The notes under the pieces: generated by a model | Told to the model about the DNA's origin: nothing | Databases searched by the model: none | What the model saw: only the letters and a program-made list of their open reading frames with translations | Sequence record: OR062945.1 | Strand: one strand, 5' to 3' | Length of the DNA: 64,000 nucleotides | From: Escherichia phage 308Ecol101PP | Made by a program: the position numbers and the translations under genes | Shown here: piece after piece, positions 6,698 to 60,913 of the stretch | Position numbering within the stretch: position 1 is the stretch's first letter | Layout: every line of letters starts with the position of its first letter

Positions 6698-6772
6698 GGC
6701 CCTGTAGCTCAATGGGAGAGCTGTCAGCTCATAACTGATAGGTAGCTGGATCGAAACCAGCCAGGGTCACCA
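6698..6772 (+). tRNA. tRNA-Met (anticodon CAT; could be Ile2 if lysidinylated)
   Basis: Hand-folded cloverleaf: acceptor GGCCCTG/CAGGGTC, D stem GCTC/GAGC, anticodon stem GTCAG/CTGAT with loop CTCATAA, T arm GCTGG-ATCGAAA-CCAGC, encoded CCA. Confidence 0.8.
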
Positions 6773-6775
6773 ATT

Positions 6776-6852
<77 letters not shown>

Positions 6853-34173: not shown

Positions 34174-34647
34174 ATGTTATTATCTGGCAAATTATACAAA
34201 GAAGAAAAACAAAAATTTTATGATGCACAGAATGGTAAGTGTCCTATTTGCCACCGTGAATTAGACCCTGATGTTCAAGGTAACCATCTTGACCACGACC
34301 ACGAATTAAACGGGCCAAAAGCAGGTAGAGTTCGTGGGTTACTCTGTAATCTGTGCAACGCAGCAGAAGGCCAAATGAAGCATAAGTTCAACCGTTCCGG
34401 TCTTAAAGGACGTGATGTCGACTACCTCGAATGGCTTGAAGCTCTTCTTGCTTATTTGAAACAAGATTATTCTGATAATAATATCCATCCTAATTTTGTT
34501 CCAGACAAAACTAAAGAGTTCTCAAGACTAGGTAAAGAGGAAATGATGGCTGAGATGCTTCAAAGAGGATTTGAATATAATGAATCTGATACCAAAACAC
34601 AATTAATAGCTTCATTCAAAAAGCAGCTTAGAAAGAGTTTAAAATGA
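34174..34647 (+). CDS. 49: Endonuclease VII (Holliday junction resolvase) gp49
   Basis: MLLSGKLYKEEKQKFYDAQNGKCPICHRELDPDVQGNHLDHDHELNGPKAG...; near-identical to T4 gp49. Confidence 0.95.
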   Translation: MLLSGKLYKEEKQKFYDAQNGKCPICHRELDPDVQGNHLDHDHELNGPKAGRVRGLLCNLCNAAEGQMKHKFNRSGLKGRDVDYLEWLEALLAYLKQDYSDNNIHPNFVPDKTKEFSRLGKEEMMAEMLQRGFEYNESDTKTQLIASFKKQLRKSLK

Positions 34648-36461: not shown

Positions 36462-36928
36462 ATTATGATAGATTTTATCCTTGCGATTTTGTGAATGGCC
36501 CTGGTTGCAGGGTCGTTCTTTTCGTTACAGGTTGTTTGCATAAATGCGAAGGGTGTTATAATAAATCAACATGGAACGCTAGAAATGGTATTCCATTCAC
36601 GGGTGAAACACTAGAGCAATTAATTGAATGTTTGAATAATGATTATATAGAAGGATTAACTATAACTGGAGGAGACCCTCTCTATCCCGATAACAGAGAT
36701 GTTGTTCATTGCATTGCTCAAACAGTAAAAAATCTTTATCCCAATAAAAGCATTTGGTTGTGGACAGGATATAAGTTTGAAGATATTAAACAACTAGAAA
36801 TGCTTAAATATGTTGATGTTATTATTGATGGGAAGTATGAGAAAAATCTTCCGACTAAAAAGATGTGGCGAGGATCAGATAATCAGCGACTTTGGTCAAA
36901 TACCGATGGGGTGTGGAAACATGATTAA
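36458..36928 (+). CDS. nrdG: Anaerobic RNR activating enzyme NrdG (radical SAM)
   Basis: CLHKCEGCYN Cys cluster near N-terminus; ATGA overlap with nrdD. Confidence 0.9.
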   Translation: MNYDRFYPCDFVNGPGCRVVLFVTGCLHKCEGCYNKSTWNARNGIPFTGETLEQLIECLNNDYIEGLTITGGDPLYPDNRDVVHCIAQTVKNLYPNKSIWLWTGYKFEDIKQLEMLKYVDVIIDGKYEKNLPTKKMWRGSDNQRLWSNTDGVWKHD

Positions 36929-45764: not shown

Positions 45765-45806
45765 TAAATTTGTTATAAACTTTGAATTGTCTTGAAAGGA
45801 AATAAA

Positions 45807-46493
45807 ATGAAACTGTCTAAAGATACTATCGCTATTCTGAAAAACTTTGCCTCTATTAACTCCGGCATTCTGCTGAGTCAAGGTAAATTTATTATGACTC
45901 GTGCAGTTAATGGCACCACTTATGCGGAAGCAAATATCTCTGATGAAATTGATTTTGACGTAGCACTTTATGATTTGAATAGCTTCTTAAGCATTTTGAG
46001 TCTAGTGTCTGATGATGCTGAAATTTCGATGCACACCGATGGCAATATTAAAATTGCAGATACACGTTCCACGGTTTATTGGCCTGCCGCTGACAAGAGC
46101 ACCATTGTTTTTCCTAATAAGCCAATTCAATTCCCAGTGGCTTCTGTGATTACTGAAATTAAAGCCGAAGACCTTCAACAATTGCTTCGAGTTTCACGTG
46201 GTCTTCAGATTGATACAATTGCTATTACAAATAAAGATGGTAAAATTGTTATCAACGGCTATAATAAAGTTGAAGATTCTGGACTAACTCGTCCTAAGTA
46301 TTCTTTGACTCTTACCGATTATGATGGTTCTAACAATTTTAACTTCGTAATCAATATGGCTAATATGAAAATCCAGCCAGGTAACTATAAAGTAATGTTG
46401 TGGGGAGCTGGTGATAAAGTTGCAGCCAAGTTTGAAAGCTCTCAAGTAAGTTATGTTATTGCGATGGAAGCCGATTCTACTCACGACTTCTAA
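45807..46493 (+). CDS. 45: Sliding clamp gp45
   Basis: MKLSKDTIAILKNFASINSGILLSQGKFIMTRAVNGTTYAEANISDEIDFDVALYDLNSFL... matches T4 gp45. Confidence 0.95.
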   Translation: MKLSKDTIAILKNFASINSGILLSQGKFIMTRAVNGTTYAEANISDEIDFDVALYDLNSFLSILSLVSDDAEISMHTDGNIKIADTRSTVYWPAADKSTIVFPNKPIQFPVASVITEIKAEDLQQLLRVSRGLQIDTIAITNKDGKIVINGYNKVEDSGLTRPKYSLTLTDYDGSNNFNFVINMANMKIQPGNYKVMLWGAGDKVAAKFESSQVSYVIAMEADSTHDF

Positions 46494-46568
46494 GTCAAAG
46501 CTTTACGTTTATTGTGATACGATTATGGAGGAGAAATCCTCCGGTTTAATGATAATGAGGAAAATTAC

Positions 46569-47531
46569 ATGATTACTATCAATTCCAAAGAACACATTCT
46601 AGAACAGAAATATCGTCCTTCTTCCATTGACGAATGTATTCTGCCTGCGTATGACCATGAAACATTCAAGTCTTTAGTATCTAAAGGAAAACTTCCTCAT
46701 ATTATTTTGCACTCTCCTTCTCCTGGTACAGGTAAAACAACCGTAGCAAAAGCATTATGTAATGATATCAATGCCGAAATGATGTTCGTCAACGGTTCTG
46801 ATTGTAAGATTGATTTTGTACGGGGACCGTTAACCGCATTCGCTCGTTCAGTCTCAATGGAAGGCAAGCCTAAAGTTATTGTTATTGATGAATTTGACCG
46901 TAGTGGCCTCGCCGAATCACAACGTCACCTTCGTACGTTTATGGAAGAATTCTCTAGTAACTGCTCTATTATTATTACTGCTAACAACATCGATGGAATT
47001 ATTGAACCATTACGTAGTCGTTGTCGAGTTATCGAATTCGGACGTCCAACCGAAGAAGATAAAATCTCGATGATGAAGAAAATGATTCATCGTATGGTTG
47101 AAATCTGTAAGAACGAAAATATCGAAATCGCTGATATGAAAGTTGTTGCAGCTCTGGTTAAAAAGAACTTCCCAGACTTTCGTCGAACAATTGGCCAATT
47201 AGACCAGTACTCGTCTAAAGGTGTTCTTGATGCGGGTATTTTGTCTATCGTAACTAATGACCGTGGCACAGTCTCTGATGTTATCGAAGCAATGAAGAAC
47301 AAAGATATCAAACAGCTTCGTGCATTAGCTCCAAAATATGCCGCAGATTATTCATGGTTCATCGATAAATTAGTTTCAGAATGTTATGACCAAGTTGCAC
47401 CTGGTAAAAGTATTATTTCGCTTTATGAAATTGCAGGCGAAAACAATAAGTTTCATGGATTAGCAAGTAATATTGAATTACATGTTATGTATATGCTTCT
47501 TCAACTGACCTGCGAACTGACTTGGAAATAA
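46569..47531 (+). CDS. 44: Clamp loader large subunit gp44
   Basis: [27 protein letters not shown]...[15 protein letters not shown]...VIVIDEFD... AAA+ motifs; matches T4 gp44. Confidence 0.95.
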
Positions 47532-47532
47532 T

Positions 47533-48096
47533 ATGAACTTATTCGATGATGACGTCCAGCTTAACGAGCACCAAATTGCATGGAAGTCTAATGACGCTGA
47601 TGCGATTCAAAAATGTGCTGATATGTTTAAAGAAAAACCTGAGAATGAATTCTTTAAAATCATTAATGCTATTAATGAAAAGAAATCTATGTCAATTGCT
47701 CAGGTCGACTACTCAAAATTTATGGTTGAGAACTCATTATCCCAGTTCCCAGAATGTATGCCAGCTGTTTACATGATGAACTTAGTCGGTTCTGAATTAA
47801 GTGATGAAGCGCACTTCAACTATATGATGGCGGCAATTCCGCGTGGTCGTCGATTCTCTAAATGGGCTAAACTAGTCGAAGACACTTCAGAGTTACTAGT
47901 TATCAAACTGTTGATGAAACATTACACAATCAACATGAATGATGCTACTGAGTATAAGCGGCTCCTTGAAAAAAATAACAAGTTGCCAATAGTCCTTAAA
48001 GAACTGAAGGCCATGGTCACTGATGAGTTTCTCAAAGAAGTTACAAAAAATGTGAAAGAACAAAAACAATTTAAAAAATTAGCATTGGAATGGTAA
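47533..48096 (+). CDS. 62: Clamp loader small subunit gp62
   Basis: 187 aa ORF immediately after gene 44 (stop/start 1 nt apart), as in T4. Confidence 0.9.
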
Positions 48097-48098
48097 AA

Positions 48099-48467
48099 AT
48101 GATTGAAATTAAATTGAAGAACCCTGAAGATTTTCTGAAAGTCAAAGAGACTTTGACCCGTATGGGCATCGCTAATAACAAGGATAAAGTCCTTTACCAG
48201 TCTTGTCATATCCTCCAAAAGCAAGGTAAGTACTATATCGTCCACTTTAAAGAAATGCTGCGTATGGACGGACGTCAGGTTGATATTGACGGTGAAGACT
48301 ATCAGCGACGTGATTCGATTGCTCAGTTGCTTGAAGACTGGGGATTGATTGTTATTGAAGACTCTGCTCGTGAAGATCTGTTTGGCCTGACTAATAACTT
48401 CCGTGTTATCTCTTTTAAACAGAAAGATGACTGGACTTTGAAAGCAAAATATACAATTGGTAATTAA
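48099..48467 (+). CDS. regA: Translational repressor RegA
   Basis: MIEIKLKNPEDFLKVKETLTRMGIANNKDKVLYQSCHILQKQGKYYIVHFKEMLRMDGRQV...NFRVISFKQK matches T4 RegA. Confidence 0.9.
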   Translation: MIEIKLKNPEDFLKVKETLTRMGIANNKDKVLYQSCHILQKQGKYYIVHFKEMLRMDGRQVDIDGEDYQRRDSIAQLLEDWGLIVIEDSAREDLFGLTNNFRVISFKQKDDWTLKAKYTIGN

Positions 48468-48474
48468 AGCAATG

Positions 48475-48494
48475 GGACTTCGGTCCCATTTGGA
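48475..48494 (+). terminator. Terminator-like hairpin after regA
   Basis: GGGAC-TTCG-GTCCC then ATTTGG. Confidence 0.5.
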
Positions 48495-48548
48495 GTATAA
48501 TAAGTTCATCAACAAACAAAAGACAATAACTCGTCTAAAGGAAATTAA

Positions 48549-51260
48549 ATGAAAGAATTTTACTTAACGGTTGAACAGATTGGTGATTCAATTTTTGAAC
48601 GTTACATCGATTCTAACGGCCGTGAACGTACTCGTGAAGTAGAATATAAACCATCACTGTTTGCTCATTGTCCAGAAAGTCAGGCTACGAAATATTTCGA
48701 TATCTACGGTAAGCCGTGTACTCGTAAGTTGTTCGCCAATATGCGTGATGCCTCCCAATGGATTAAACGCATGGAAGATATCGGACTTGAAGCACTTGGC
48801 ATGGATGATTTCAAATTGGCGTATTTGTCTGACACTTATAACTATGAAATCAAATACGACCATACAAAAATTCGTGTGGCTAACTTCGACATCGAAGTAA
48901 CATCTCCGGACGGGTTCCCTGAGCCGTCACAAGCAAAACATCCGATTGATGCTATCACTCATTATGACTCAATTGATGACAGGTTTTATGTATTTGACCT
49001 TTTGAATTCTCCATATGGTAATGTAGAAGAATGGTCTATTGAAATCGCTGCTAAGCTTCAAGAACAAGGCGGTGATGAAGTTCCATCTGAAATTATCGAT
49101 AAAATCATTTATATGCCGTTCGATAACGAAAAAGAATTGTTGATGGAATATCTCAACTTCTGGCAACAGAAAACTCCTGTCATTTTGACTGGATGGAACG
49201 TTGAGTCATTTGATATTCCATATGTGTATAACCGAATCAAGAATATTTTTGGCGAATCTACTGCGAAACGTTTATCACCACATCGTAAAACTCGTGTTAA
49301 AGTTATCGAAAACATGTATGGTTCTCGTGAAATCATTACATTGTTCGGTATCTCTGTTCTTGATTACATTGACCTTTACAAAAAATTCTCTTTTACCAAT
49401 CAACCATCATATTCTCTGGATTACATTTCAGAATTTGAATTGAACGTTGGTAAACTGAAATATGACGGCCCTATTTCTAAGCTTCGTGAAAGCAATCACC
49501 AACGATATATTTCTTATAACATTATCGACGTGTATCGTGTATTGCAAATTGATGCTAAACGTCAGTTCATCAACTTGAGTTTGGACATGGGTTATTATGC
49601 TAAGATACAGATTCAATCTGTGTTTAGCCCAATTAAAACATGGGATGCTATTATTTTTAATAGCCTTAAAGAGCAGAACAAGGTGATTCCACAAGGTCGT
49701 TCTCACCCGGTTCAACCTTATCCCGGCGCTTTTGTTAAGGAACCTATTCCAAATCGATACAAATATGTAATGAGTTTCGACCTTACATCTCTGTATCCAA
49801 GTATTATTCGCCAAGTGAATATTAGCCCAGAAACAATAGCAGGAACGTTTAAAGTAGCTCCACTACATGATTATATTAACGCAATCGCTGAACGTCCTTC
49901 TGATGTGTACAGTTGTTCTCCTAACGGCATGATGTATTATAAAGACCGTGACGGTGTTGTTCCAACTGAAATCACTAAAGTCTTTAATCAACGTAAAGAA
50001 CATAAAGGTTACATGCTTGCAGCTCAACGTAATGGCGAAATAATTAAAGAGGCATTGCATAATCCTAATCTTTCTGTTGACGAACCATTAGATGTTGATT
50101 ATCGTTTCGACTTCAGTGATGAGATTAAAGAAAAGATTAAAAAGTTGTCTGCTAAATCTCTTAATGAAATGTTGTTTAGAGCTCAACGTACTGAAGTTGC
50201 AGGTATGACTGCCCAAATTAACCGTAAATTGCTTATCAACTCACTTTATGGTGCACTTGGCAACGTTTGGTTCCGTTATTATGATTTGCGTAATGCTACT
50301 GCAATCACAACATTCGGGCAAATGGCTTTACAGTGGATTGAACGTAAAGTTAATGAATATCTGAATGAAGTTTGTGGCACAGAAGGTGAAGCTTTCGTTC
50401 TTTATGGTGATACAGACTCTATTTACGTATCTGCTGATAAAATTATCGATAAGGTTGGTGAATCTAAATTCCGTGATACCAACCATTGGGTAGACTTCTT
50501 AGATAAGTTTGCACGTGAACGTATGGAACCAGCTATTGATAGAGGTTTCCGTGAAATGTGTGAATACATGAACAATAAACAACACTTAATGTTCATGGAC
50601 CGAGAAGCTATCGCTGGGCCTCCACTCGGTTCTAAAGGTATTGGTGGATTCTGGACTGGTAAGAAACGTTATGCATTAAACGTGTGGGATATGGAAGGAA
50701 CCAGATACGCTGAGCCTAAACTCAAAATCATGGGTCTAGAGACTCAGAAATCTTCGACTCCTAAAGCAGTACAGAAAGCTCTTAAAGAATGTATTCGTCG
50801 TATGCTTCAAGAAGGTGAAGAATCATTACAAGAATATTTTAAAGAGTTTGAAAAAGAATTCCGTCAATTGAATTATATTAGCATCGCGTCGGTATCTTCT
50901 GCGAATAACATTGCTAAATATGATGTAGGTGGATTCCCTGGTCCTAAATGCCCGTTCCATATTCGTGGAATTCTGACGTATAACCGGGCTATCAAAGGTA
51001 ATATCGATGCACCGCAAGTTGTAGAAGGTGAAAAAGTATATGTTCTGCCTTTACGTGAAGGAAACCCATTCGGTGATAAATGTATCGCATGGCCTTCTGG
51101 TACTGAAATCACAGATTTAATTAAAGACGATGTACTTCATTGGATGGACTACACTGTTCTCCTTGAGAAGACATTTATTAAACCACTTGAAGGATTCACA
51201 TCAGCAGCGAAACTCGATTACGAGAAGAAAGCATCTCTGTTCGATATGTTCGATTTTTGA
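48549..51260 (+). CDS. 43: DNA polymerase gp43 (family B), uninterrupted
   Basis: 903 aa; exo motifs FDIE and YNIIDV, pol motifs DLTSLYPSII, KILINSLYGALG, YGDTDS; sequence matches my recollection of RB69 gp43. Confidence 0.97.
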   Translation: MKEFYLTVEQIGDSIFERYIDSNGRERTREVEYKPSLFAHCPESQATKYFDIYGKPCTRKLFANMRDASQWIKRMEDIGLEALGMDDFKLAYLSDTYNYEIKYDHTKIRVANFDIEVTSPDGFPEPSQAKHPIDAITHYDSIDDRFYVFDLLNSPYGNVEEWSIEIAAKLQEQGGDEVPSEIIDKIIYMPFDNEKELLMEYLNFWQQKTPVILTGWNVESFDIPYVYNRIKNIFGESTAKRLSPHRKTRVKVIENMYGSREIITLFGISVLDYIDLYKKFSFTNQPSYSLDYISEFELNVGKLKYDGPISKLRESNHQRYISYNIIDVYRVLQIDAKRQFINLSLDMGYYAKIQIQSVFSPIKTWDAIIFNSLKEQNKVIPQGRSHPVQPYPGAFVKEPIPNRYKYVMSFDLTSLYPSIIRQVNISPETIAGTFKVAPLHDYINAIAERPSDVYSCSPNGMMYYKDRDGVVPTEITKVFNQRKEHKGYMLAAQRNGEIIKEALHNPNLSVDEPLDVDYRFDFSDEIKEKIKKLSAKSLNEMLFRAQRTEVAGMTAQINRKLLINSLYGALGNVWFRYYDLRNATAITTFGQMALQWIERKVNEYLNEVCGTEGEAFVLYGDTDSIYVSADKIIDKVGESKFRDTNHWVDFLDKFARERMEPAIDRGFREMCEYMNNKQHLMFMDREAIAGPPLGSKGIGGFWTGKKRYALNVWDMEGTRYAEPKLKIMGLETQKSSTPKAVQKALKECIRRMLQEGEESLQEYFKEFEKEFRQLNYISIASVSSANNIAKYDVGGFPGPKCPFHIRGILTYNRAIKGNIDAPQVVEGEKVYVLPLREGNPFGDKCIAWPSGTEITDLIKDDVLHWMDYTVLLEKTFIKPLEGFTSAAKLDYEKKASLFDMFDF

Positions 51261-51300
51261 TATAATGACATGGACGGTAAACTAATTAAATGAGAGAAAT

Positions 51301-51936
51301 ATGAAAACTACTCCTATTACTATCGCTATTGACGCAATCATAAAACAAGCTTCTTCTTTGGCCGCTATGGCCAAAGTAATTAGTCAAAACCCTGCTCGTT
51401 ATAATGCTATTCTAGAAACTCTTCGACGCCCAGGACTTAGTAATTATGAAAGCCGAGTAATTATTACAGGTGTTGGTAAGAATGCTAATATTGCAACTAA
51501 AGCTTCTGAGACATTTGCTTCACTTGGTATCCCGAGTATGTACTTGAACACTGGGCATTATTCTCACGGTGATGCAGGATTCATTGCGCCTAATGATGTG
51601 TTGATTCATATTAGTCGTTCTGGTAAAACTGAAGAAATGATAGGCGTGGCTAAGCATCTTAAAATGATTCGTCCGAACGTCAAACAGATTCTGTTGCATT
51701 GTAACCCGGACATTCCACAAGAATACGAAGCTCTTTTTGATTATACGTTCTGTACAGGCATCGCAGTAGAGGTTGATGAGAATTCTCTGGCTCCGACCAT
51801 GTCCACTACATTGTTGTTAGCGCTTATCGATACGTTTGCTATCAACCTTTCGTCTGAACGTGGATTTACCTCTAATGACTTCCTTAAGTTCCACCCTGGT
51901 GGTGCACTAGGTGCCATGTTACGAGGCGAACAATGA
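51301..51936 (+). CDS. SIS-domain sugar-phosphate isomerase (KdsD/GmhA-like)
   Basis: VIITGVGKNANIATKASETFASLGIP...VLIHISRSGKTEEM: SIS-domain Gly-rich loop plus S-x-S-G-x-T-E motif. Confidence 0.7.
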   Translation: MKTTPITIAIDAIIKQASSLAAMAKVISQNPARYNAILETLRRPGLSNYESRVIITGVGKNANIATKASETFASLGIPSMYLNTGHYSHGDAGFIAPNDVLIHISRSGKTEEMIGVAKHLKMIRPNVKQILLHCNPDIPQEYEALFDYTFCTGIAVEVDENSLAPTMSTTLLLALIDTFAINLSSERGFTSNDFLKFHPGGALGAMLRGEQ

Positions 51937-52076
51937 AAGCAATAACAATAGGACTTTTACTATTGATGCTTGTCATGACTATCTACTGGAGCTTAACGGC
52001 TCCAGTAATGATTCCGACTCTTATAATCGGATGGATTATGATTGGACTACAAGCAAAGTATGAATGCTTTAACTAG
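51933..52076 (+). CDS. Small membrane ORF (47 aa)
   Basis: MKAITIGLLLLMLVMTIYWSL...; ATGA-coupled to SIS gene; below ORF-track threshold. Confidence 0.4.
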   Translation: MKAITIGLLLLMLVMTIYWSLTAPVMIPTLIIGWIMIGLQAKYECFN

Positions 52077-52117
52077 AATAGTGTACAATACTCCTACTTA
52101 CCAATGAGGACCACAAC

Positions 52118-53803
52118 ATGAAAAAAGCTGTTATTCTTGGTGCTGGACTGGCAACTCGTTTGTATCCAATAACGCATCATATTCCTAAGGTGCTTGTTAA
52201 CTATAAACAAGACACTATTCTGAGCAATTTGTATACAATTTATTCTGACCTTGGCGCAGATGAAATTATTGTAGTAGTTCATTCAAAATTTGCTGAAACT
52301 GTTCGAGCTTATTGTGAGCAAGAAGGGTTCAATGTGACTATTCGTACAGTTGATGAAGCGTATGGTTCTGCTTATGCTCTTGCTAAATTGCACAAAGATT
52401 TAGACGGCCATAATGTAATTGTTAACTGGTGTGATATTATTCCTGATTTTGGTTCGTGGTCTTGGAATGTTAACGCAATCTATGTTAAGGGTGACGAATG
52501 TCGATATAATTTCGACGGTGAAAATATCACTAATGTAGGTTCAACAGGTGGTAATGTTGTAGGAATTTATCAGTTCAAAGACTGGGAATTCTATATGGGT
52601 TCTACTGATGAGGAAATTCATGAATACTGCAAAGGACGTGATTTCGTAGAATTCCTTTACGGCAGCGCATTCAATAAATCAGAGCTTATGAATCTAATTG
52701 ATTTAGGTGATATGCCTAAACTTGAAAAAGCTCATGAAGTTCGTGAACTTAATCGTAGTTTTAATGCAGTTGAAATTGGTGAAGAAACTGTAACTAAATT
52801 CGCATTAACCGAACAGGGCCGAGCTCTTCAGAAAGATGAGATTTCATGGTATCTTAAAGTGAAATCAGATTCAGTTCCTCAGTTAGTTTCTGTTAATGAA
52901 AATAACTTTGAAATGGAACGCATTAAAGGTAAGCCGGCATTTGAATATATTAAATCCAAATCAAGTCTTGCTCGTCCACAAATTGTTGATGCAATTTTAG
53001 ATGCACTGAAATTCAGCACAGACACTTATTTTGTAAGTCCTGAAACTGTTCGTCGTGATTTCACTAAAGAATTCTATACTAAAGTTATTGATCGTTGTGA
53101 AAGTATTCAACCATTGATTGATTCATTTGGTAAAATCACACATGTGAACTACACTAAGATTGGGCGTCTGAAGCCAATGTTGAAACAAGCTTTAGAACAC
53201 CTTATTCGTTATCATAACCGTTCTCAGGGACAGTACTCTGTTATTCATGGTGACCCGAACTTCAGTAATACTATGATTACTGATAATGGTGAAGTCAAGT
53301 TTATCGACCCTCGTGGATATTTTGGTGAAACCAAGATTTATGGGCCAAAATTGTATGATGAAGCTAAAGTGCTTTACGCTGTTTCAGGTTATGATGAATT
53401 CAACGCTAATCCGACTTGGGGACAGTTTACTATTGATGAAACAACTTGTAATGTGACTATTAACATCAATCCGTTAGTTTACAAATATGGAAAGATGAGT
53501 TCGTTTAACGAGTATCATCATTTGGCAGTGGCAATTATCTGGATTGCATTAGGTGGTTATTTCAAGAATAATCCACTTAAAGCGGTAGCCGCATATTATA
53601 AAGGTATGGAACTTCTGACTAAGCAATTACGTAATATGGGCCGTGTACTTCAGGACGGCACTATTAGTTATGATGTAGCAGAACCTGTAACGGCTACTCT
53701 GATTACAAAAAATCCTGGTAAATGGGTACTAACTGATAAAGAAACTGGTGTTTCTTATCGTCCAATCGGTGGCGATATCACTCATCAATGGGAACGAATC
53801 TAA
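52118..53803 (+). CDS. Bifunctional sugar-1-phosphate nucleotidyltransferase (N-terminal) / kinase-like (C-terminal) protein
   Basis: N-terminal MKKAVILGAGLATRLYPIT resembles RmlA/LicC G-x-G-x-R-L motif; C-terminal ...VIHGDPNFSNTMITDNGEVKFIDPRGYFG... resembles choline/aminoglycoside kinase-fold catalytic loop. Confidence 0.7.
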   Translation: MKKAVILGAGLATRLYPITHHIPKVLVNYKQDTILSNLYTIYSDLGADEIIVVVHSKFAETVRAYCEQEGFNVTIRTVDEAYGSAYALAKLHKDLDGHNVIVNWCDIIPDFGSWSWNVNAIYVKGDECRYNFDGENITNVGSTGGNVVGIYQFKDWEFYMGSTDEEIHEYCKGRDFVEFLYGSAFNKSELMNLIDLGDMPKLEKAHEVRELNRSFNAVEIGEETVTKFALTEQGRALQKDEISWYLKVKSDSVPQLVSVNENNFEMERIKGKPAFEYIKSKSSLARPQIVDAILDALKFSTDTYFVSPETVRRDFTKEFYTKVIDRCESIQPLIDSFGKITHVNYTKIGRLKPMLKQALEHLIRYHNRSQGQYSVIHGDPNFSNTMITDNGEVKFIDPRGYFGETKIYGPKLYDEAKVLYAVSGYDEFNANPTWGQFTIDETTCNVTININPLVYKYGKMSSFNEYHHLAVAIIWIALGGYFKNNPLKAVAAYYKGMELLTKQLRNMGRVLQDGTISYDVAEPVTATLITKNPGKWVLTDKETGVSYRPIGGDITHQWERI

Positions 53804-54189
53804 TGCACCGTGTAAAAAACATGCTTAATCTTTGTTTTGATGTCGATGATTGTATAACAGAGTGGAATAACAATCGTGATTACGTGAACTTCAAACCAGA
53901 CGTCGAAATGGTGTCTGCCATTAATGCCCTGTATGATGCAGGGCATACCATAACGCTTTACACTGCTCGCGGTATGAAGTCAGTAGGTCCTGGTCGTATA
54001 GCAATTGACATTCTCCCAAGTCTGATTCAGAACTTGGCAAACATTGGATTGAAGTACCATAATTTGCTAACACATAAACCAGTATATGATTGGATTATCG
54101 ACGACAAAGCTATGCGTCCTGACGAATTCAAAGCTCTTATGAATAAAGGCGAATTCGAAACATTTAAATCATATAAACCGAATCTATAA
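53803..54189 (+). CDS. HAD-superfamily phosphatase-like protein (tentative)
   Basis: N-terminal LNLCFDVDDCIT resembles HAD motif I (D-x-D); TAATG overlap with upstream gene. Confidence 0.5.
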   Translation: MHRVKNMLNLCFDVDDCITEWNNNRDYVNFKPDVEMVSAINALYDAGHTITLYTARGMKSVGPGRIAIDILPSLIQNLANIGLKYHNLLTHKPVYDWIIDDKAMRPDEFKALMNKGEFETFKSYKPNL

Positions 54190-54235
54190 TAATTTAAGTA
54201 AGACCTGCAAAAACCATCGCATCAATTAACGTGGG

Positions 54236-55411
54236 ATGCAAAAAAAAAAAATGAATACTTTTAAAATCGGAACGAATTTTGATTTAGCTCTTCTTGATAA
54301 AATCGTAGAGCTCAATAAAACTTATCCTAATAGCTTGATAAACGAAGTATACGGCTCTACAAGAGAAATGGCTTTTGTAGCAGCCAGACCTGATTTTAGG
54401 CTTCCTGACGTTGACAAAAAGATGTTAGAAGATTACGTTAAACGTTGTAACGAATTAGGTATTTGCTTTAACTATACACTCAACACGATAAATCCTGGTT
54501 CAAAAAGAGAACTAGTTGAGTGGAAGAAGAAAGCTATTCAGGATTATGTTCAGTATCTTTGGTCAATAGGCGTATGGCGTATTACTATCGCTAACCCTGT
54601 TGTTATGGAAATTGTTCGTGAAGTCAATAAAGACATTGAGATTGAAGTTTCAACAATTCTACATGTCGATGCTGTAACTCAAATCAAATACTTGCATGAC
54701 CAATATAATATCAAAAAGGTCTGCTGTGGAATTCATAAGAACCGTTCAGTTTCTTTCCTGAAACGTGCAGCAGAGTTTTGTAATAAGAACAATATAATAT
54801 TTGAAGTTCTTGTAAATGAGTTCTGTTCTAATGCTGGTAAAGGGTACACAACACATTGTAGCTATCGTGACTCTTGCTATATTTTCCATAGCACCGATGT
54901 TACAGTAGATGATGCCAAATCCTTAAATGGATATCCAATGCAACACTGTATTAAAGCTCGTGATACAGATCCATTTAACTGGTTGAGAACTCGTTTTGTT
55001 CGTCCTCAAGATTTGAAACTTTATAATGATATTGGTATCACTCAATTTAAAGTTTCAGGACGTACAGGTAGCACCGACTACATTTTAAAAGTTCTTGAAG
55101 CTTACGCTTCTGAAAAGTTTGAAGGTAATTTGTTGGAATTGTGGAAGCCTTTAGAGACCATTTTCACTCTTGAAAATGAGACTGAGTTTTCACATACGGT
55201 AAATATTGAAACCTCTTTGTTAGACGGCTTTTTAGAAAAAAGGTGGTTCAAACATCCAGATTTCGATTGTGCTAATGAAATCTGCGGGACGACGTGTACA
55301 TATTGTGAAAGATATTATAAACGTCAGTTATCTAAAAATGGGTTATCAGAAAACTCTATATCTATTATTGATATAACTAACTCTGATGACGCTTTGAGGT
55401 ACCCAGAATGA
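54236..55411 (+). CDS. Hypothetical protein with Cys-rich C-terminus (candidate modification enzyme; fold not recognised)
   Basis: 391 aa; C-terminal CANEICGTTCTYCERYY; A12 homopolymer at 54240-54251 between two candidate start codons (54236 and 54251). Confidence 0.65.
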   Translation: MQKKKMNTFKIGTNFDLALLDKIVELNKTYPNSLINEVYGSTREMAFVAARPDFRLPDVDKKMLEDYVKRCNELGICFNYTLNTINPGSKRELVEWKKKAIQDYVQYLWSIGVWRITIANPVVMEIVREVNKDIEIEVSTILHVDAVTQIKYLHDQYNIKKVCCGIHKNRSVSFLKRAAEFCNKNNIIFEVLVNEFCSNAGKGYTTHCSYRDSCYIFHSTDVTVDDAKSLNGYPMQHCIKARDTDPFNWLRTRFVRPQDLKLYNDIGITQFKVSGRTGSTDYILKVLEAYASEKFEGNLLELWKPLETIFTLENETEFSHTVNIETSLLDGFLEKRWFKHPDFDCANEICGTTCTYCERYYKRQLSKNGLSENSISIIDITNSDDALRYPE

Positions 55412-55569
55412 TTTCTAGAAAAACTTTTAACCACCAACTTAACGAAGAGATTTTGACTATTAAAATTAACAGCAACGAACAAATTCTTAAAAAGGCCCTT
55501 ATGGGCCTGTTTGAAACTAAAGCGGCTAAAGTGATTAAAGAAACCTGTTCAACTAGAATACTACGCTGA
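55408..55569 (+). CDS. Small ORF (53 aa), doubtful
   Basis: ATGA overlap with upstream gene, but contains a GGCCC-TTAT-GGGCC hairpin that may instead be a terminator. Confidence 0.25.
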   Translation: MISRKTFNHQLNEEILTIKINSNEQILKKALMGLFETKAAKVIKETCSTRILR

Positions 55570-55689
55570 TGCATTTCTTCATAGTGTTCTTGGAAATATC
55601 GATGCTGAAGCTTTACGTTATATCAACATCGCTAAGAAATTCAAATAAGCTTTATGAATTGAGTATATAATAACTGTATTGAGGTAAAC

Positions 55690-56406
55690 ATGGGAAAACA
55701 TAACACAATGAAATATATTAAAGCCGCAGATTTTCAATCCGCATTTAAAGCTGTCAATCGTGAAATTTTAGAAAATCCACAGTTCGTTACTGATTCTCGT
55801 ATTGGACGTTGTAATGAAATTGGGTCTATGACAGTAGTTGTTGATACCCCTTCATCATTCAAAATGACCGACCCACGTATTAATCGCATCTCTTATGAAT
55901 ATGCTGAAGATTTCTGGAAATTTATGATTTCTGGTGGTACTGATGCAAAAGAAGCATTTAAGGCATATCCTAACGTTGCTAAATTTATTTCTAAACCTAA
56001 ATCAGACGCTTTGCCTGCAAACTTCAACACTTTCTATGGTCCACGAATTGCGGCCCAGTTACCAGCTCTTCTCAAAGAACTTAAAGAGAAACCTAATTCA
56101 CGAAGAGTTGTGTTTCAAATTCTTGAAAGTTCAGATCAGGCTTTGCTTGATTCGGATGAAACGCTTGAATATCCATGTACTGACTCAGTGACTTATTATA
56201 TTCGTGATGGTAAGCTTTATACCCACTGTCATATGCGTTCTCAGAACTGTGCTGTTGTTATGCAGTTGGATTTTTATCTCCAAGGAAAATTACTTCATTA
56301 TATCGCTAACGAATGTGGTGTAGAAGTTGGTGATTATACTCATACCATGGTAAGTGCCCATGTGTTTGAACGTGATTTTGATTATGTTAAAGGATTCCTT
56401 GACTAA
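55690..56406 (+). CDS. 42: Thymidylate-synthase-fold pyrimidine hydroxymethylase (gene 42-like, divergent)
   Basis: ...KPNSRRVVF...YPCTDSVTYYIRDGKLYTHCHMRSQNCAV...SAHVFERDF parallels T4 gp42 NPDSRRG...CTNTVQYLIRDKKINAVVNMRSNDVV...SLHVYSRHF; N-terminal half diverges. Confidence 0.7.
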   Translation: MGKHNTMKYIKAADFQSAFKAVNREILENPQFVTDSRIGRCNEIGSMTVVVDTPSSFKMTDPRINRISYEYAEDFWKFMISGGTDAKEAFKAYPNVAKFISKPKSDALPANFNTFYGPRIAAQLPALLKELKEKPNSRRVVFQILESSDQALLDSDETLEYPCTDSVTYYIRDGKLYTHCHMRSQNCAVVMQLDFYLQGKLLHYIANECGVEVGDYTHTMVSAHVFERDFDYVKGFLD

Positions 56407-57305
56407 TGGCTATTTTCCGCGTACCTATCTTGAGTATGCGGTCTTATGAAACTGGACAGTATGCTATCCTTAAGGATGGCAACTTCCAACTTCATTTGCA
56501 CCGTGCTAATCCGGGTGATGTGATTACATATCCACGTAATGCATCTGATATTAAAGAATGCGAACGTCTTTTTCCAGAATTTAAGTTTGTTCCATTATGG
56601 TATAAAGATAACGCGTATAACACTCGTAAATATTTCTGGTCTGAAAATGAATTTGTGGTTGATTCATTAATTGCTTATTATGATTGTGATTTTCTAATCA
56701 CAGATATCACTGGATATGACGGCGCTTTTGATGTGGAATTCAATTTCAATATCACTGCAGACCCTAATAAACCACGTTTTTATATTGACGAATTCTTAAA
56801 AACCGACATGTTGTCGGTTAATCGTTCACTTCAAACTACTGTGTTGAATGAACGTCAAAAAGAAGTGCTGGTTAACGCAGGTGCAGATGGTAATAAGATT
56901 ATCGTAACCCAGAAAGTTATACGTCCTTCCATCATGCAGCGTCTTGTAGGTGATTTGGCTCCTATTCATCTAGATGGTATTTTTCATCCATTTCGAATTA
57001 GTGACCCGTGCTATCGTTTTGAACAAGTGGTTGAATGTGCAATTCAATTAGGTCAACCGCTTTATATAACTGATCCAAATAATAGTTTCGACAGAAATAA
57101 GTATCCTGAAGAAGCGCTGATTCGAATTTTTAATCCAACTAAAACTGAGTACTATCAAATTCTTAAAGGACGTCCGAAGATTCAATATTTCGAAAATCCT
57201 GAAGAAGTATTCCATCCAGGTCTTGGTGAGTTCATCTACTTTAATGCTTTAATTTCTTCGCCGTATAATATACCTAAATACGAAGATGTCGTAATCGAGG
57301 AATAA
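56406..57305 (+). CDS. Hypothetical protein at the beta-gt position (candidate glycosyltransferase; fold not recognised)
   Basis: 299 aa; TAATG overlap with gene 42-like; occupies the slot where T4 has beta-glucosyltransferase. Confidence 0.6.
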   Translation: MAIFRVPILSMRSYETGQYAILKDGNFQLHLHRANPGDVITYPRNASDIKECERLFPEFKFVPLWYKDNAYNTRKYFWSENEFVVDSLIAYYDCDFLITDITGYDGAFDVEFNFNITADPNKPRFYIDEFLKTDMLSVNRSLQTTVLNERQKEVLVNAGADGNKIIVTQKVIRPSIMQRLVGDLAPIHLDGIFHPFRISDPCYRFEQVVECAIQLGQPLYITDPNNSFDRNKYPEEALIRIFNPTKTEYYQILKGRPKIQYFENPEEVFHPGLGEFIYFNALISSPYNIPKYEDVVIEE

Positions 57306-57306
57306 A

Positions 57307-57855
57307 ATGGTTAAAATTATTTTAGTAGATGGCCCGGATAATGCCGGTAAAACAACTTTCATTAATGACATAATGGAAATTAGTGAAAGATATGTAAAGA
57401 TTGATTTCCCTAAACGAACAGTTGATGGACGTTTCGATGTTAAGTCTCGAAATGAAGTTGGCTGTTTCGAAACGATGTTGAATTATTTAGACCCTACTAA
57501 GATTTATCTGTTAGACCGTGGATATATTAGTAACTGGGTTTATGGACGTATTCGACAAGATGCGGACTCGGTTCTTGACGTTTATGAACAGGATTATGTT
57601 CGTCTTTGCCAAAACCATGATGTGTTCACAATTATTTTAACACGTAACGAAATGACTGAAAGTTTTGAAGACGACCTTATTACTTTGTCTTCATTCGGTT
57701 TTAATACAGTCATTTCATATTTTGAAGAGTTTGCAATTCATAACAAAATCCAAACGTATCAATTACTTAATCATGACGGTGCTAACAAAGTTATAGGATT
57801 TAATGCAAGCGAACGTAATTATTTGATTACAGAAATTATCAAATGGGCTCGTTAA
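57307..57855 (+). CDS. P-loop nucleoside/nucleotide kinase-like protein
   Basis: MVKIILVDGPDNAGKTTF Walker A; LLDRGYISNWVYG resembles the thymidylate-kinase DR(Y/H) region. Confidence 0.65.
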   Translation: MVKIILVDGPDNAGKTTFINDIMEISERYVKIDFPKRTVDGRFDVKSRNEVGCFETMLNYLDPTKIYLLDRGYISNWVYGRIRQDADSVLDVYEQDYVRLCQNHDVFTIILTRNEMTESFEDDLITLSSFGFNTVISYFEEFAIHNKIQTYQLLNHDGANKVIGFNASERNYLITEIIKWAR

Positions 57856-57954
57856 GAGCCTGTTTAAAGTTTTAAATGCTGTATAACCCTTAGTATATAA
57901 TCGTCTTATCTTTTAAACATGAGTAAAATATAATGATGCCTATGGAAAAATACA

Positions 57955-59127
57955 ATGTCTGATTTAAAATCTCGTCTGATTAAAGCTTCTACTTCTAAAA
58001 TGACTGCAGACTTGACTAAGTCTAAGCTGTTTAATAATCGTGATGAAGTCCCTACTCGTATTCCGATGTTGAATATTGCATTAGGTGGTGCACTGAATGC
58101 CGGGTTGCAATCAGGCTTAACTATTTTTGCTGCTCCTTCTAAACACTTTAAAACGTTGTTTGGGCTGACCATGGTTGCAGCATATATGAAGAAATATAAA
58201 GATGCAATTTGTTTGTTCTATGATTCAGAATTTGGTGCTTCAGAATCTTATTTTCGTTCAATGGGTGTTGATTTAGACCGTGTAGTTCATACTCCTATTC
58301 AATCTGTCGAACAACTTAAAGTTGATATGACTAATCAGCTTGACGCGATTGAACGTGGTGATAAAGTTATTATCTTTATCGATTCAATCGGTAATACTGC
58401 ATCTAAGAAAGAAACCGAAGATGCGTTGAACGAGAAAGTCGTAGGTGATATGTCTCGTGCTAAGGCACTTAAATCTCTTTTCCGTATTGTGACCCCGTAT
58501 CTGACTATTAAAGATATTCCGTGTGTTGCAATTAACCATACAGCAATGGAAATCGGCGGATTGTATCCTAAAGAGATTATGGGCGGTGGTACAGGTATTC
58601 TTTATTCTGCCAACACGGTATTTTTTATCTCTAAACGTCAGGTTAAAGAAGGCACAGAATTGACCGGTTATGACTTCACGTTGAAAGCAGAAAAATCTCG
58701 AACCGTTAAAGAAAAATCTACTTTCCCAATCACGGTTAATTTTGATGGTGGTATCGACCCATTCAGTGGCTTGTTAGAAATGGCAACTGAAATTGGTTTT
58801 GTAGTTAAGCCTAAAGCCGGGTGGTATGCTCGAGAATTCCTTGACGAAGAAACAGGCGAAATGATTCGTGAAGAAAAATCATGGCGTGCTAAAGCTACTG
58901 ATTGTGTAGAATTCTGGGGACCGTTGTTTAAACACAAACCTTTCCGAGACGCAATTGAAACTAAATATAAACTAGGTGCTATCTCTTCTATTAAAGAAGT
59001 TGATGACGCTGTTAATGACCTTATTAATTGCAAAGCAACAACTAAAGTTCCGGTTAAAACTTCTGATGCACCGTCTGCAGCAGATATAGAAAACGACCTT
59101 GACGAAATGGAAGATTTCGATGAATAA
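57955..59127 (+). CDS. uvsX: Recombinase UvsX (RecA-like)
   Basis: MSDLKSRLIKASTSKMTADLT...; matches T4 UvsX throughout. Confidence 0.95.
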   Translation: MSDLKSRLIKASTSKMTADLTKSKLFNNRDEVPTRIPMLNIALGGALNAGLQSGLTIFAAPSKHFKTLFGLTMVAAYMKKYKDAICLFYDSEFGASESYFRSMGVDLDRVVHTPIQSVEQLKVDMTNQLDAIERGDKVIIFIDSIGNTASKKETEDALNEKVVGDMSRAKALKSLFRIVTPYLTIKDIPCVAINHTAMEIGGLYPKEIMGGGTGILYSANTVFFISKRQVKEGTELTGYDFTLKAEKSRTVKEKSTFPITVNFDGGIDPFSGLLEMATEIGFVVKPKAGWYAREFLDEETGEMIREEKSWRAKATDCVEFWGPLFKHKPFRDAIETKYKLGAISSIKEVDDAVNDLINCKATTKVPVKTSDAPSAADIENDLDEMEDFDE

Positions 59128-59461
59128 TCTCGATGATTTAAATCTAGAAATCGTTGATGAATCCCCTTCTTCGGAAGGGGAAGACATTCGCAAAGAACGA
59201 GTGTTTAATGAATCTCTTAAAATTATCCGTTCAGCAATGGAAAATGTCATTCAAGAGATTCTGATTACACTTGAAGACGGTTCTCATCATATAGTCTATA
59301 TTACAAAACTAGACTGGGTTGATGGTAAAATCGTAATGGACTTTGCAGTTCTTGACCAGGATAGAAAAGCAGAACTTGCACCACATGTTGAAAAATGTGT
59401 TACAATGCAAGTACAACAAGCTTTTAATGAACGGACCAAGAAAAAATTTAAATTCTTTTAA
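59120..59461 (+). CDS. 40: gp40-position protein (head vertex assembly chaperone in T4)
   Basis: 113 aa ORF overlapping uvsX stop, upstream of gene 41, as T4 gene 40. Confidence 0.6.
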   Translation: MNNLDDLNLEIVDESPSSEGEDIRKERVFNESLKIIRSAMENVIQEILITLEDGSHHIVYITKLDWVDGKIVMDFAVLDQDRKAELAPHVEKCVTMQVQQAFNERTKKKFKFF

Positions 59462-59470
59462 GGAGTTATC

Positions 59471-60913
59471 GTGGTAGAAATTATTTTGTCTCATCTAGTA
59501 TATGACCAGGCTTATTTTTCTAAGGTCTGGCCTTATATGGATTCTGAGTATTTTGAGCGTGGACCGGCAAAAAATGTCTTTAAAATTATAAAGAGCCACG
59601 TTAACGAATATAATGCAATGCCATCTATCAATGCGTTAAAGGTGGCTTTAGATAACAGTTCTTTAACTGAAGCCGAATATAAAGGAACTTCAGACCTAAT
59701 TGAAAAATTGGCTGATACTCCTGAAGACCATGAATGGTTGGTTAAAGAAACTGAGAAATATGTCCAGCAAAAAGCGATGTATAATGCTACGTCCAAAATC
59801 ATTGAGATTCAGTCTAATGCTGAATTACCTCCAGAACAACGTAACAAGAAAATGCCTGATGTAGGAGCTATTCCTGATATTATGCGTCAAGCACTTTCAA
59901 TTTCGTTTGATAGTTATGTTGGGCATGACTGGATGGAAGACTATGAAGCACGCTGGCTTTCTTATCTAAACAAAGCACGTAAGGTCCCGTTCAAATTAAA
60001 CATTCTGAATAAAATCACTAAAGGTGGTGCTGAAACCGGTACACTGAATGTTTTAATGGCTGGTGTTAACGTTGGTAAATCTTTAGGCCTTTGTTCACTT
60101 GCTGCAGATTATCTTCAAACAGGTCATAACGTTCTTTATATTTCTATGGAAATGGCTGAAGAAGTTTGCGCTAAGCGTATAGATGCAAACATGCTTGACG
60201 TATCACTTGATGATATTGATGATGGTAACGTATCTTATGCTGAATATAAAGCCAAGATGGAAAAATGGCGTTCAAAATCCACATTAGGACGTTTAGTAGT
60301 TAAACAGTATCCTACTGGCGGAGCTAATGCTAATACATTCCGTGCATTGCTTAATGAATTGAAACTCAAGAAGAACTTTGTGCCATCTGTAATCATGGTT
60401 GATTACTTAGGTATTTGTGGGTCTTGTCGTATCAGAGTTTACACTGAAAATAGTTACACATTAGTTAAAGCTATCGCAGAAGAACTTCGTGCATTAGCAG
60501 TAGAATCTGAAACAGTTCTATGGACTGCAGCTCAAGTAGGACGTGCAGCATGGGATGCTTCGGATATGAACATGAGCGATATTGCAGAATCAGCAGGTTT
60601 ACCAGCAACGGCAGATTTCATGTTGGCCGTAATTGAAACCGAAGAACTTGCACAAGCCGAACAACAACTTATCAAACAAATCAAATCACGATACGGCGAT
60701 AAGAATAAGTGGAATAAATTCCTGATGGGTGTACGTAAAGGCAACCAGAAATGGATTGAGATTGAGCAAGAAGGCATGAACACATCTAACACAGTAAATG
60801 AAAACGCAGGTGCTCAGATGCGTCAGGCAGAGGTGAATCGTACGGAACGCGTAGGTAAAGCCAAAGCAACACGTGCTGACCTAGATAGCTTAGCCAATGA
60901 GTTAAAATTTTAA
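59471..60913 (+). CDS. 41: Replicative DNA helicase gp41 (DnaB-like)
   Basis: GTG start; MVEIILSHLVYDQAYFSKVWPYMDSEYFERGPAKN...; Walker A AGVNVGKS; matches T4 gp41. Confidence 0.95.
   Translation: MVEIILSHLVYDQAYFSKVWPYMDSEYFERGPAKNVFKIIKSHVNEYNAMPSINALKVALDNSSLTEAEYKGTSDLIEKLADTPEDHEWLVKETEKYVQQKAMYNATSKIIEIQSNAELPPEQRNKKMPDVGAIPDIMRQALSISFDSYVGHDWMEDYEARWLSYLNKARKVPFKLNILNKITKGGAETGTLNVLMAGVNVGKSLGLCSLAADYLQTGHNVLYISMEMAEEVCAKRIDANMLDVSLDDIDDGNVSYAEYKAKMEKWRSKSTLGRLVVKQYPTGGANANTFRALLNELKLKKNFVPSVIMVDYLGICGSCRIRVYTENSYTLVKAIAEELRALAVESETVLWTAAQVGRAAWDASDMNMSDIAESAGLPATADFMLAVIETEELAQAEQQLIKQIKSRYGDKNKWNKFLMGVRKGNQKWIEIEQEGMNTSNTVNENAGAQMRQAEVNRTERVGKAKATRADLDSLANELKF

Follow-up and report, generated by a model that had tools for sequence, protein, structure and literature searches.

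Gene content of the region between gene 43 and uvsX

The DNA analysed is a stretch of 64,000 nucleotides from Escherichia phage 308Ecol101PP (sequence record OR062945.1), referred to as the window. At positions 55690-56406 on the plus strand it carries an intact open reading frame (ORF) with a predicted product of 238 amino acids. The region around this ORF matches Mosigvirus, the RB69-like T-even phages, and the DNA identity across the ORF itself is 99.3% to 348Ecol098PP, 98.2% to HY126, and 95.7% to RB69. An earlier reading made from the sequence only had placed a base-modifying gene within a sugar module, and the gene order agrees with that description, the module lying between gene 43 and uvsX. 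The products encoded from gene 43 to uvsX are an isomerase, a nucleotidyltransferase/kinase, a HAD phosphatase, a U32 protein, the product of a small ORF, a thymidylate synthase homolog (ORF 55690-56406), a glycosyltransferase, and a P-loop kinase. In T4, the same slot is occupied by imm.1, imm, gene 42, the beta-glucosyltransferase gene, and segA.

All genes of the module lie on the plus strand. The gene at 51301-51936 is assigned to an arabinose-5-phosphate isomerase (RB69 gp55) according to the counterparts annotated in RB69, 348Ecol098PP, and HY126. At 52118-53803 lies a gene for a bifunctional sugar kinase/NDP-sugar pyrophosphorylase (AfhE), which corresponds to RB69 gp52:53 as a single ORF. 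In its product, the N-terminal domain fits the Pfam model NTP_transferase, and the matches of the C-terminal portion are kinase-like; PMC13326640 is the source for its role. The role of the HAD-type sugar phosphatase gene (AfhF, RB69 gp51) at 53788-54189 has the same source, and its product matches the NCBIfam capsule-biosynthesis phosphatase model TIGR01689 (E 4e-13). The gene at 54236-55411 encodes a U32-family, putative Fe-S protein (RB69 gp50; Pfam Peptidase_U32, PF01136, E 6.6e-11), whose best fold match in the PDB is the U32 protein 5D88 (E 1.8e-7). The stop codon of this gene is overlapped by a small candidate ORF of 53 amino acids at 55408-55569, which is annotated with 79 amino acids in RB69, 53 in 348Ecol098PP, and 40 in HY126; a Pfam search of its product returned no family match. 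Downstream, the start of a gene at 56406-57305 overlaps the stop of ORF 55690-56406. Its product, 99% identical to the RB69 46/47 pieces, is assigned to DNA arabinosyltransferase 1 (RB69 gp46:47 as a single ORF) following Table 1 of PMC13326640. The last gene, at 57307-57855, encodes a P-loop, thymidylate-kinase-like nucleotide kinase that is 98% identical to RB69 gp45, a protein labelled "nucleotide kinase" in PMC13326640. A kinase of the gp45 type was also found in the modules of DLP3, Thanatos-1, and Marfa, in the first two of them beside the glycosyltransferase gene. As a whole, ORF 55690-56406 is flanked by a complete set of genes for arabinosylation, with a glycosyltransferase gene and genes for NDP-sugar synthesis.

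Directly upstream of the ORF, the segment 55645-55685 on the plus strand was read from the sequence as a putative T4-type middle promoter with a ribosome-binding site. It begins with a MotA-box-like element, ATAAGCTTTA, at 55645-55654, which is followed by a spacer of 11 nt, TATAAT at 55666-55671, and GAGG at 55681-55684. The segment resembles what we take to be the T4 middle-promoter consensus, and it is possible that the gene is transcribed and translated from it. A scan of 51200-58000 for sigma-70 promoters and terminators gave nothing above the shuffled expectation, and Rfam and tRNA scans returned only two tRNAs, both distant from this locus. A tblastn search of the window with T4 gp42 gave ORF 55690-56406 as its single match, so that no second, true gene 42 was detected there.

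Fold, signature residues, and distance from T4 gp42

The Pfam model Thymidylat_synt (PF00303) matches only residues 122-235 of the product of ORF 55690-56406 (E 2.4e-15). The motifs that had been named for this region are present: NSRR at 136-139, YPCTDSV at 161-167, and HVFER at 224-228. The N-terminal half had been described as unrelated to gp42, a view that is rejected on the alignments and the structural comparison. BLAST aligns residues 27-230 with residues 19-222 of T4 gp42, and the N- and C-terminal halves are 20% and 29% identical, respectively. The NCBIfam archaeal thymidylate synthase model TIGR03283 aligns to residues 9-233, and the sequence of the MilA structure to residues 14-237, which is nearly the full length in both cases. 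The AlphaFold model of the protein (pLDDT 87.5) superposes with PDB 9IQC at a TM-score of 0.94 and with MilA at 0.80 over 238 columns. By the profile alignments and the model, the thymidylate synthase fold spans the whole protein. Outside the family, the nearest solved structure is that of MilA, a CMP hydroxymethylase (PDB 5B6D, 5JNH), but MilA is only 23-24% identical, depends on folate, has the ribonucleotide CMP as its substrate, and belongs to antibiotic biosynthesis.

In order to place the protein relative to T4, every window ORF of at least 60 amino acids was compared with 71 kb of T4. The identity of the ORF 55690-56406 product to T4 gp42 is 24.8% over 218 amino acids (E about 1e-12), the lowest value among the 126 window ORFs with a T4 counterpart, the median of which is 66%. 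The observation that this gene is the most divergent from T4 is therefore upheld, and the alignment proposed as its check, against gp42 itself, likewise gives an identity that is not comparable to that of the core genes. The accompanying statement that the neighbouring genes are 80-95% identical to T4 is true of gp55 (91%), gp49 (90%), gp41 (85%), and lysozyme (82%), but not of gp43 (62%), uvsX (68%), and gp44/45/62 (74-79%).

The same reading had attributed the distance from gp42 to accelerated divergence. This explanation was rejected after the enzyme was compared with gp43, gp41, and gp44 across Acinetobacter phage DLP3, Shewanella phage Thanatos-1, and Klebsiella phage Marfa, three phages that carry the system. 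The enzyme is 69%, 72%, and 80% identical to its relatives in these phages, respectively, while the values for the DNA polymerase gp43 are 62%, 65%, and 70%. The family was found in 342 phage records. Among the phage records sampled across the ranking, identity drops from at least 68% straight to 38% or less, and the T4-type gp42 proteins are found at 24-26%. BLAST scores are 52 bits between the ORF 55690-56406 product and T4 gp42, 57 bits between the product and E. coli ThyA, and 49 bits between gp42 and ThyA. Because the enzyme is conserved at 69-80%, is separated from the other proteins by a gap between 68% and 38% identity, and is no closer to gp42 than to ThyA, these sequence comparisons indicate that it forms a deep branch of its own within the thymidylate synthase superfamily, occupying the gene-42 position, and is not a fast-evolving gp42.

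The residues that distinguish this branch were examined in an alignment of the ORF product, RB69 gp48, and 120 database homologs (122 family sequences in all) together with T4 gp42 and E. coli ThyA. The catalytic Cys163 (C146 in ThyA), Glu160 (L143E), Asp194 (N177D), and the phosphate-binding Arg138/Arg139 are each invariant in 122/122 family sequences. T4 gp42 shares the fold, its Cys148 and Asp179 align with Cys163 and Asp194, and it also has an acidic residue at the L143 position. The two groups differ at ThyA positions W80, D169, and G173, which we take to be folate contacts. At these positions T4 gp42 retains W82, D171, and G175, while the ORF product has Ala97, Asn186, and Val190. The W80 position is Ala or Ser and the G173 position is Val in all 122 family members, and Asn186 (D169N) is invariant in all of them, with Asp in both T4 gp42 and ThyA. 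An Asn at the position of ThyA Asp169 has been given as diagnostic of the hydroxylase family (PMC13326640). Judged from the alignment, the replacement of all three residues agrees with the published change of cofactor, in which flavin takes the place of folate.

Assignment as a dCMP 5-hydroxylase

The ORF product shares 238/238 residues with AfhB of phage HY126 (XAN60475.1) and 238/238 residues with chain A of PDB entries 9IQC, 9IR2, and 9IQU. With RB69 gp48 it shares 235/238 residues (98.7%), leaving three differences. These AfhB entries bear the titles "Monooxygenase dependent on riboflavin with dCMP and FAD" or "phage HY126 dCMP hydroxylase-AfhB with substrate dCMP", with 2025-07-16 as the release date of both 9IQC and 9IQU. 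According to PMC13326640, the HY126 crystal structure and in vitro reconstitution originate from He et al. (Nat Chem Biol 2026). For the RB69 enzyme, it has been reported that purified gp48 carries an FMN-like flavin; that gp48 together with a dNMP kinase generates 5-hydroxy-dC in E. coli DNA; that this 5-hydroxy-dC takes 18O from 18O2; and that the product, with a mass of 243 Da (245 Da under 18O2), differs from that of T4 (PMC13326640). In RB69 DNA, an oxygen-linked arabinose is attached directly to cytosine C5, the oxygen being that of 5-hydroxycytosine (Lee et al., NAR 2026, PMC13326640). The flavin is named differently in the two sources, as FAD or riboflavin in the PDB titles and as FMN in PMC13326640.

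Given a product that is identical to the crystallised AfhB and 98.7% identical to RB69 gp48, for which assays have been published, and given its signature residues and the surrounding genes, ORF 55690-56406 very probably encodes the Mosigvirus dCMP 5-hydroxylase, or 5-hydroxy-dCMP synthase (RB69 gp48, HY126 AfhB), in which flavin and O2 replace methylene-tetrahydrofolate on a thymidylate synthase fold. In sequence (complete identity or 235/238 residues), neighbourhood, and signature residues, no difference of substance from HY126 AfhB and RB69 gp48 was found. The other 5-hydroxy-dCMP synthases of Straboviridae, including gp80 of DLP3 (Acinetobacter) and TH1_062 of Thanatos (Shewanella), belong to the same subfamily with 69-80% identity and all signature residues. 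Their genes adjoin an Aat1-type glycosyltransferase gene and a P-loop kinase gene, as here, but the surrounding modules differ. The DLP3 locus has no U32 gene and carries extra glycosyltransferase-like genes, three of which are listed as arabinosyltransferases in PMC13326640.

The reaction can be proposed from two sources: the literature gives the bound flavin, the origin of the oxygen in O2, and the 5-hydroxy-dC product, and the sequence gives identity, signature residues, and gene context. Since the protein is 100% identical to AfhB and 98.7% identical to RB69 gp48, we infer that it binds flavin and uses O2 to convert dCMP to 5-hydroxy-dCMP. The presence of both Cys163 and Asp194 implies the customary first step at C6 of dCMP: Cys163 would add to C6, as its counterparts do in all relatives of thymidylate synthase, and Asp194 would select cytosine. 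The activated C5 would then attack a flavin-derived oxygen species, presumably and most likely the C4a-hydroperoxide, instead of a folate methylene, and elimination of the cysteine would free 5-hydroxy-dCMP. This nucleotide would be phosphorylated and incorporated in place of dC. On the DNA, the 5-OH would be arabinosylated by the glycosyltransferase encoded immediately downstream, with NDP-arabinose, probably UDP-arabinofuranose, supplied as donor by the products of the upstream isomerase, kinase/pyrophosphorylase, and phosphatase genes.

Several other readings of the ORF were considered. The sequence-only reading took the enzyme for a hydroxymethylase, that is, an orthologous gp42 which diverged rapidly alongside the sugar machinery and still produces 5-hydroxymethyl-dCMP. 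The gene does occupy the gene-42 position beside a DNA glycosyltransferase gene, as in T4, and uvsX; the catalytic Cys and the cytosine-selecting Asp are kept; RB69 DNA was described as carrying arabosyl-hmC (Thomas et al. 2018, PMC6024577); and dCMP hydroxymethylase is the label in many GenBank records. However, an identical protein has been deposited and crystallised with flavin as a dCMP hydroxylase, the product of the RB69 enzyme is 5-hydroxy-dC with a mass unlike that of the T4 product, the presumed folate contacts are replaced in 122/122 family members, and the enzyme is not evolving fast while gp42 is as distant from it as ThyA is. For RB69 and HY126 the hydroxymethylase reading has already been refuted by the published assays, and for the present protein it is very unlikely. 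Even less credible, and almost certainly wrong, is an ordinary thymidylate synthase producing dTMP, as entered in many database records. The only models matched in Pfam and NCBIfam are those of thymidylate synthases, and GenBank gives the name "thymidylate synthase", but all NCBIfam scores (17-70 bits) are far under the curated cut-offs of 108-427 bits, for example 69.6 against 174.6. The uracil-selecting Asn177 is replaced by Asp and the water-excluding Leu143 by Glu, the folate-binding Asp169 and Trp80 are replaced as well, and the protein has no counterpart of the last ~45 residues of ThyA.

It could also be supposed that the enzyme is a hydroxylase in air with a second physiologically relevant activity or substrate, such as dCTP, DNA, or a folate-dependent reaction without oxygen. 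The enzyme needs O2, yet the phage carries genes of an anaerobic ribonucleotide reductase, and from this it would follow that the modified base must also be supplied without oxygen. Against this stand the dCMP in the crystal structures, the replacement of the presumed folate contacts, and a separate anaerobic candidate, the U32 protein, encoded two genes upstream, and such a dual role is highly improbable. As a dCMP 5-hydroxylase, the enzyme is unlike the product of T4 gene 42 because it belongs to a distinct branch of the thymidylate synthase family, one that uses flavin. The suggestion of altered substrate handling connected with glycosylation is thereby correct in part. The function differs from that of gp42 and is tied to the adjacent glycosylation genes, but the substrate is still dCMP and the cytosine-selecting Asp is kept. 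It is the cofactor and the chemistry that changed, not the substrate: T4 gp42 takes a one-carbon unit from methylene-tetrahydrofolate, and the enzyme of ORF 55690-56406 takes oxygen from O2 by way of flavin.

The U32 protein and the significance of the module

The protein encoded two ORFs upstream, at 54236-55411, may be a partner of the hydroxylase. In ubiquinone synthesis, the U32 proteins UbiU/V replace flavin- and O2-dependent hydroxylases under anoxia; UbiU/V, RlhA, and TrhP are all U32 proteins linked to O2-independent hydroxylation, and the family has been proposed to consist of Fe-S enzymes that hydroxylate without O2, with prephenate as the oxygen donor (PMC10990095). By analogy, we tentatively consider, at somewhat less than even chances, that the phage U32 protein (RB69 gp50) hydroxylates C5 of deoxycytidine nucleotides, or of cytosine in DNA, without O2 and probably with prephenate. 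For RlhA and TrhP, the target is C5 of pyrimidines in RNA. On this reading, gp50 may supply 5-hydroxycytosine when AfhB/gp48 is without O2, for example in the anoxic gut. The pairing of a flavin/O2 hydroxylase with a U32 protein would be like that of UbiI/H/F (flavin, O2) with UbiU/V (U32, prephenate), or of TrhO with TrhP, except that the flavin-using partner in the phage is built on a thymidylate synthase fold; the comparison is one of analogy and does not place the phage proteins in those systems. Homologs of the thymidylate synthase-like enzyme are absent from the known RNA pyrimidine hydroxylation pathways (PMC13326640).

Several features of the protein and its distribution are consistent with such a role. 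The phage U32 subfamily has 10 invariant cysteines. Of the four canonical 4Fe-4S positions, the alignment pairs three with C197, C208, and C214 and has a residue other than Cys at the second; the seven other invariant cysteines include a C-terminal Cx4Cx3Cx2C. Conservation within the module is highest for the U32 protein (80-89% identity), which was found in 221 phage records, all at least 81% identical, including phages of Enterobacterales and Shewanella. The hydroxylase is carried by 57 Acinetobacter phage records; Acinetobacter lies outside the ten most frequent host genera of U32, so that at most two such records can carry it. Acinetobacter is a strict aerobe. Beside the U32 gene, the window also encodes the anaerobic ribonucleotide reductase proteins nrdD and nrdG.

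Ten unrelated metagenomic loci, each with a U32 homolog 47-56% identical, were also examined. Nine of the ten look like phage replication or nucleotide-metabolism regions, and the remaining one (L014), with a dockerin-bearing glycoside hydrolase, looks bacterial. In all 10, no gene of the thymidylate synthase fold was found within 10 kb of U32. A homolog of the window's arabinosyltransferase (Aat1-like) lies immediately upstream of U32 in 6/10 loci, and in one of these six an AfhE-like sugar activator gene is directly upstream and a DAHP synthase gene directly downstream. The latter scores 237 bits as DAHP synthase versus 63 bits as KDO8P synthase, and it is with DAHP synthase that the pathway to prephenate begins.

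Other results count against the U32 reading or add little to it. In Dhakavirus Bp7, a phage of E. coli, the module is present and U32 is absent from the locus examined, which also weakens a strict rule that U32 occurs only in phages of anaerobe-capable hosts. The similarity to TrhP, RlhA, and UbiU is remote: pairwise BLAST of the phage protein against UbiU, UbiV, TrhP, and RlhA was not significant, and hhalign gave only weak alignments to the E. coli proteins TrhP and UbiU, at probabilities below 10%. Single-sequence and profile searches of the PDB returned no meaningful match, and a search of a viral fold library made no addition. RB69 gp50 is labelled only "sugar or heterocycle reductase" in PMC13326640, whose text mentions neither U32 nor prephenate. 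In the literature searched, nothing linking U32 to phage DNA modification was found; He et al. 2026 and Mahler et al. 2025, which lay outside that search, may cover the gene. This side lead may be new.

The enzyme of ORF 55690-56406 is already published, including the crystal structure of an identical protein, and the turning of a folate-dependent fold to flavin chemistry, striking as it is, is published as well. The value of the present finding is corrective, as the gene is widely annotated as a thymidylate synthase or dCMP hydroxymethylase. If the enzyme is a flavin/O2 dCMP hydroxylase, as it very probably is here, the phages would carry O-linked arabinosyl-5-hydroxycytosine and not hydroxymethylcytosine. 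The identity of the base affects the predicted escape from restriction, CRISPR, and type IV systems, and is relevant to the choice of therapeutic phages. The U32 reading, if true, would explain how cytosine can be fully replaced without oxygen in such phages, and would imply a DNA-modification role for a large uncharacterised U32 subfamily of gut phages.

Apparent mosaic structure of the window relative to RB69, and comparisons with T4

Compared with RB69, the region 45800-60900 of the window looks mosaic. The gp43, gp62, regA and uvsX proteins are 100% identical to those of RB69, as is gp44 where the RB69 sequence is available, and gp41 reaches 99% identity; only 79% identity is seen for gp40. 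For the dCMP hydroxylase gene (55690-56406, + strand), DNA identity is higher to 348Ecol098PP (99.3%) than to RB69 (95.7%). In the RB69 reference record, 2 module genes are in two pieces each, the kinase/pyrophosphorylase as ORF052/053 and the arabinosyltransferase as ORF046/047. Both are single intact ORFs in the window, of 561 aa (52118-53803) and 299 aa (56406-57305), respectively, consistent with the published interpretation of the RB69 splits as sequencing errors.

Outside this region, 34644-36928 (+ strand) holds nrdD and nrdG, the genes of the anaerobic ribonucleotide reductase. In its aligned part NrdD is 98% identical to the T4 protein, well in excess of the 66% median for the window, suggesting very strong constraint or else recent exchange with a T4-like phage. 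Additionally, neighbouring genes for tRNA-Met (CAT) and tRNA-Arg (TCT) at 6698-6852 (+ strand) lie where T4 has its tRNA cluster.

The hydroxylase gene and its upstream region

Proteins matching that encoded at 55690-56406 are named thymidylate synthase, dCMP hydroxymethylase, deoxycytidylate 5-hydroxymethyltransferase or hypothetical protein in GenBank and UniRef, and the demonstrated hydroxylase activity is reflected in none of the names seen among these records. Immediately upstream, in the region 55408-55689, a small ORF overlaps the stop codon of the U32 gene; its annotated length in close relatives is 79, 53 or 40 aa. The 120-nt gap that follows it contains the MotA-box-like ATAAGCTTTA, an 11-nt spacer and TATAAT, an arrangement that could be a T4-type middle promoter of the hydroxylase gene.

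Distribution of module genes and the U32-family protein

The thymidylate-kinase-like P-loop kinase gene of the module (57307-57855, + strand) is present in all module versions examined (DLP3, Thanatos-1, Marfa and Bp7), and several metagenomic loci likewise have a Tmk-like gene close to the U32 gene. The locus of Escherichia phage Bp7 (L012 5497-10586), a Dhakavirus resembling T4 in retaining imm beside gene 43, contains the hydroxylase, glycosyltransferase, kinase, phosphatase and sugar-activating genes; neither the U32 gene nor the isomerase gene was found in it.

In 6 loci from unrelated metagenomic phages, a U32 gene is abutted or overlapped by an Aat1-like glycosyltransferase gene resembling the window arabinosyltransferase (L017 6939-12804, L019 9016-11101, L021 9028-11101, L022 9022-11086, L023 9085-11089 and L024 2735-4820). 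No TS-fold gene was found within 10 kb of any of these pairs, and PolIII-alpha lies within 5 of the 6 loci. In L017 the pair is also preceded by an AfhE-like sugar activator and followed by a DAHP synthase and an epimerase; L021 additionally carries a UDP-galactopyranose mutase gene.

In the window, the U32 gene (54236-55411, + strand) is the second ORF upstream of the gene for the O2-dependent dCMP hydroxylase. Its product, with 80-89% identity between genera, is better conserved than any other protein of the module and has 10 invariant cysteines. A hydroxylase role for it is absent from the discussion in the pathway paper (Lee et al., NAR 2026; PMC13326640). The U32-family protein of the window may provide an O2-independent path to 5-hydroxycytosine.
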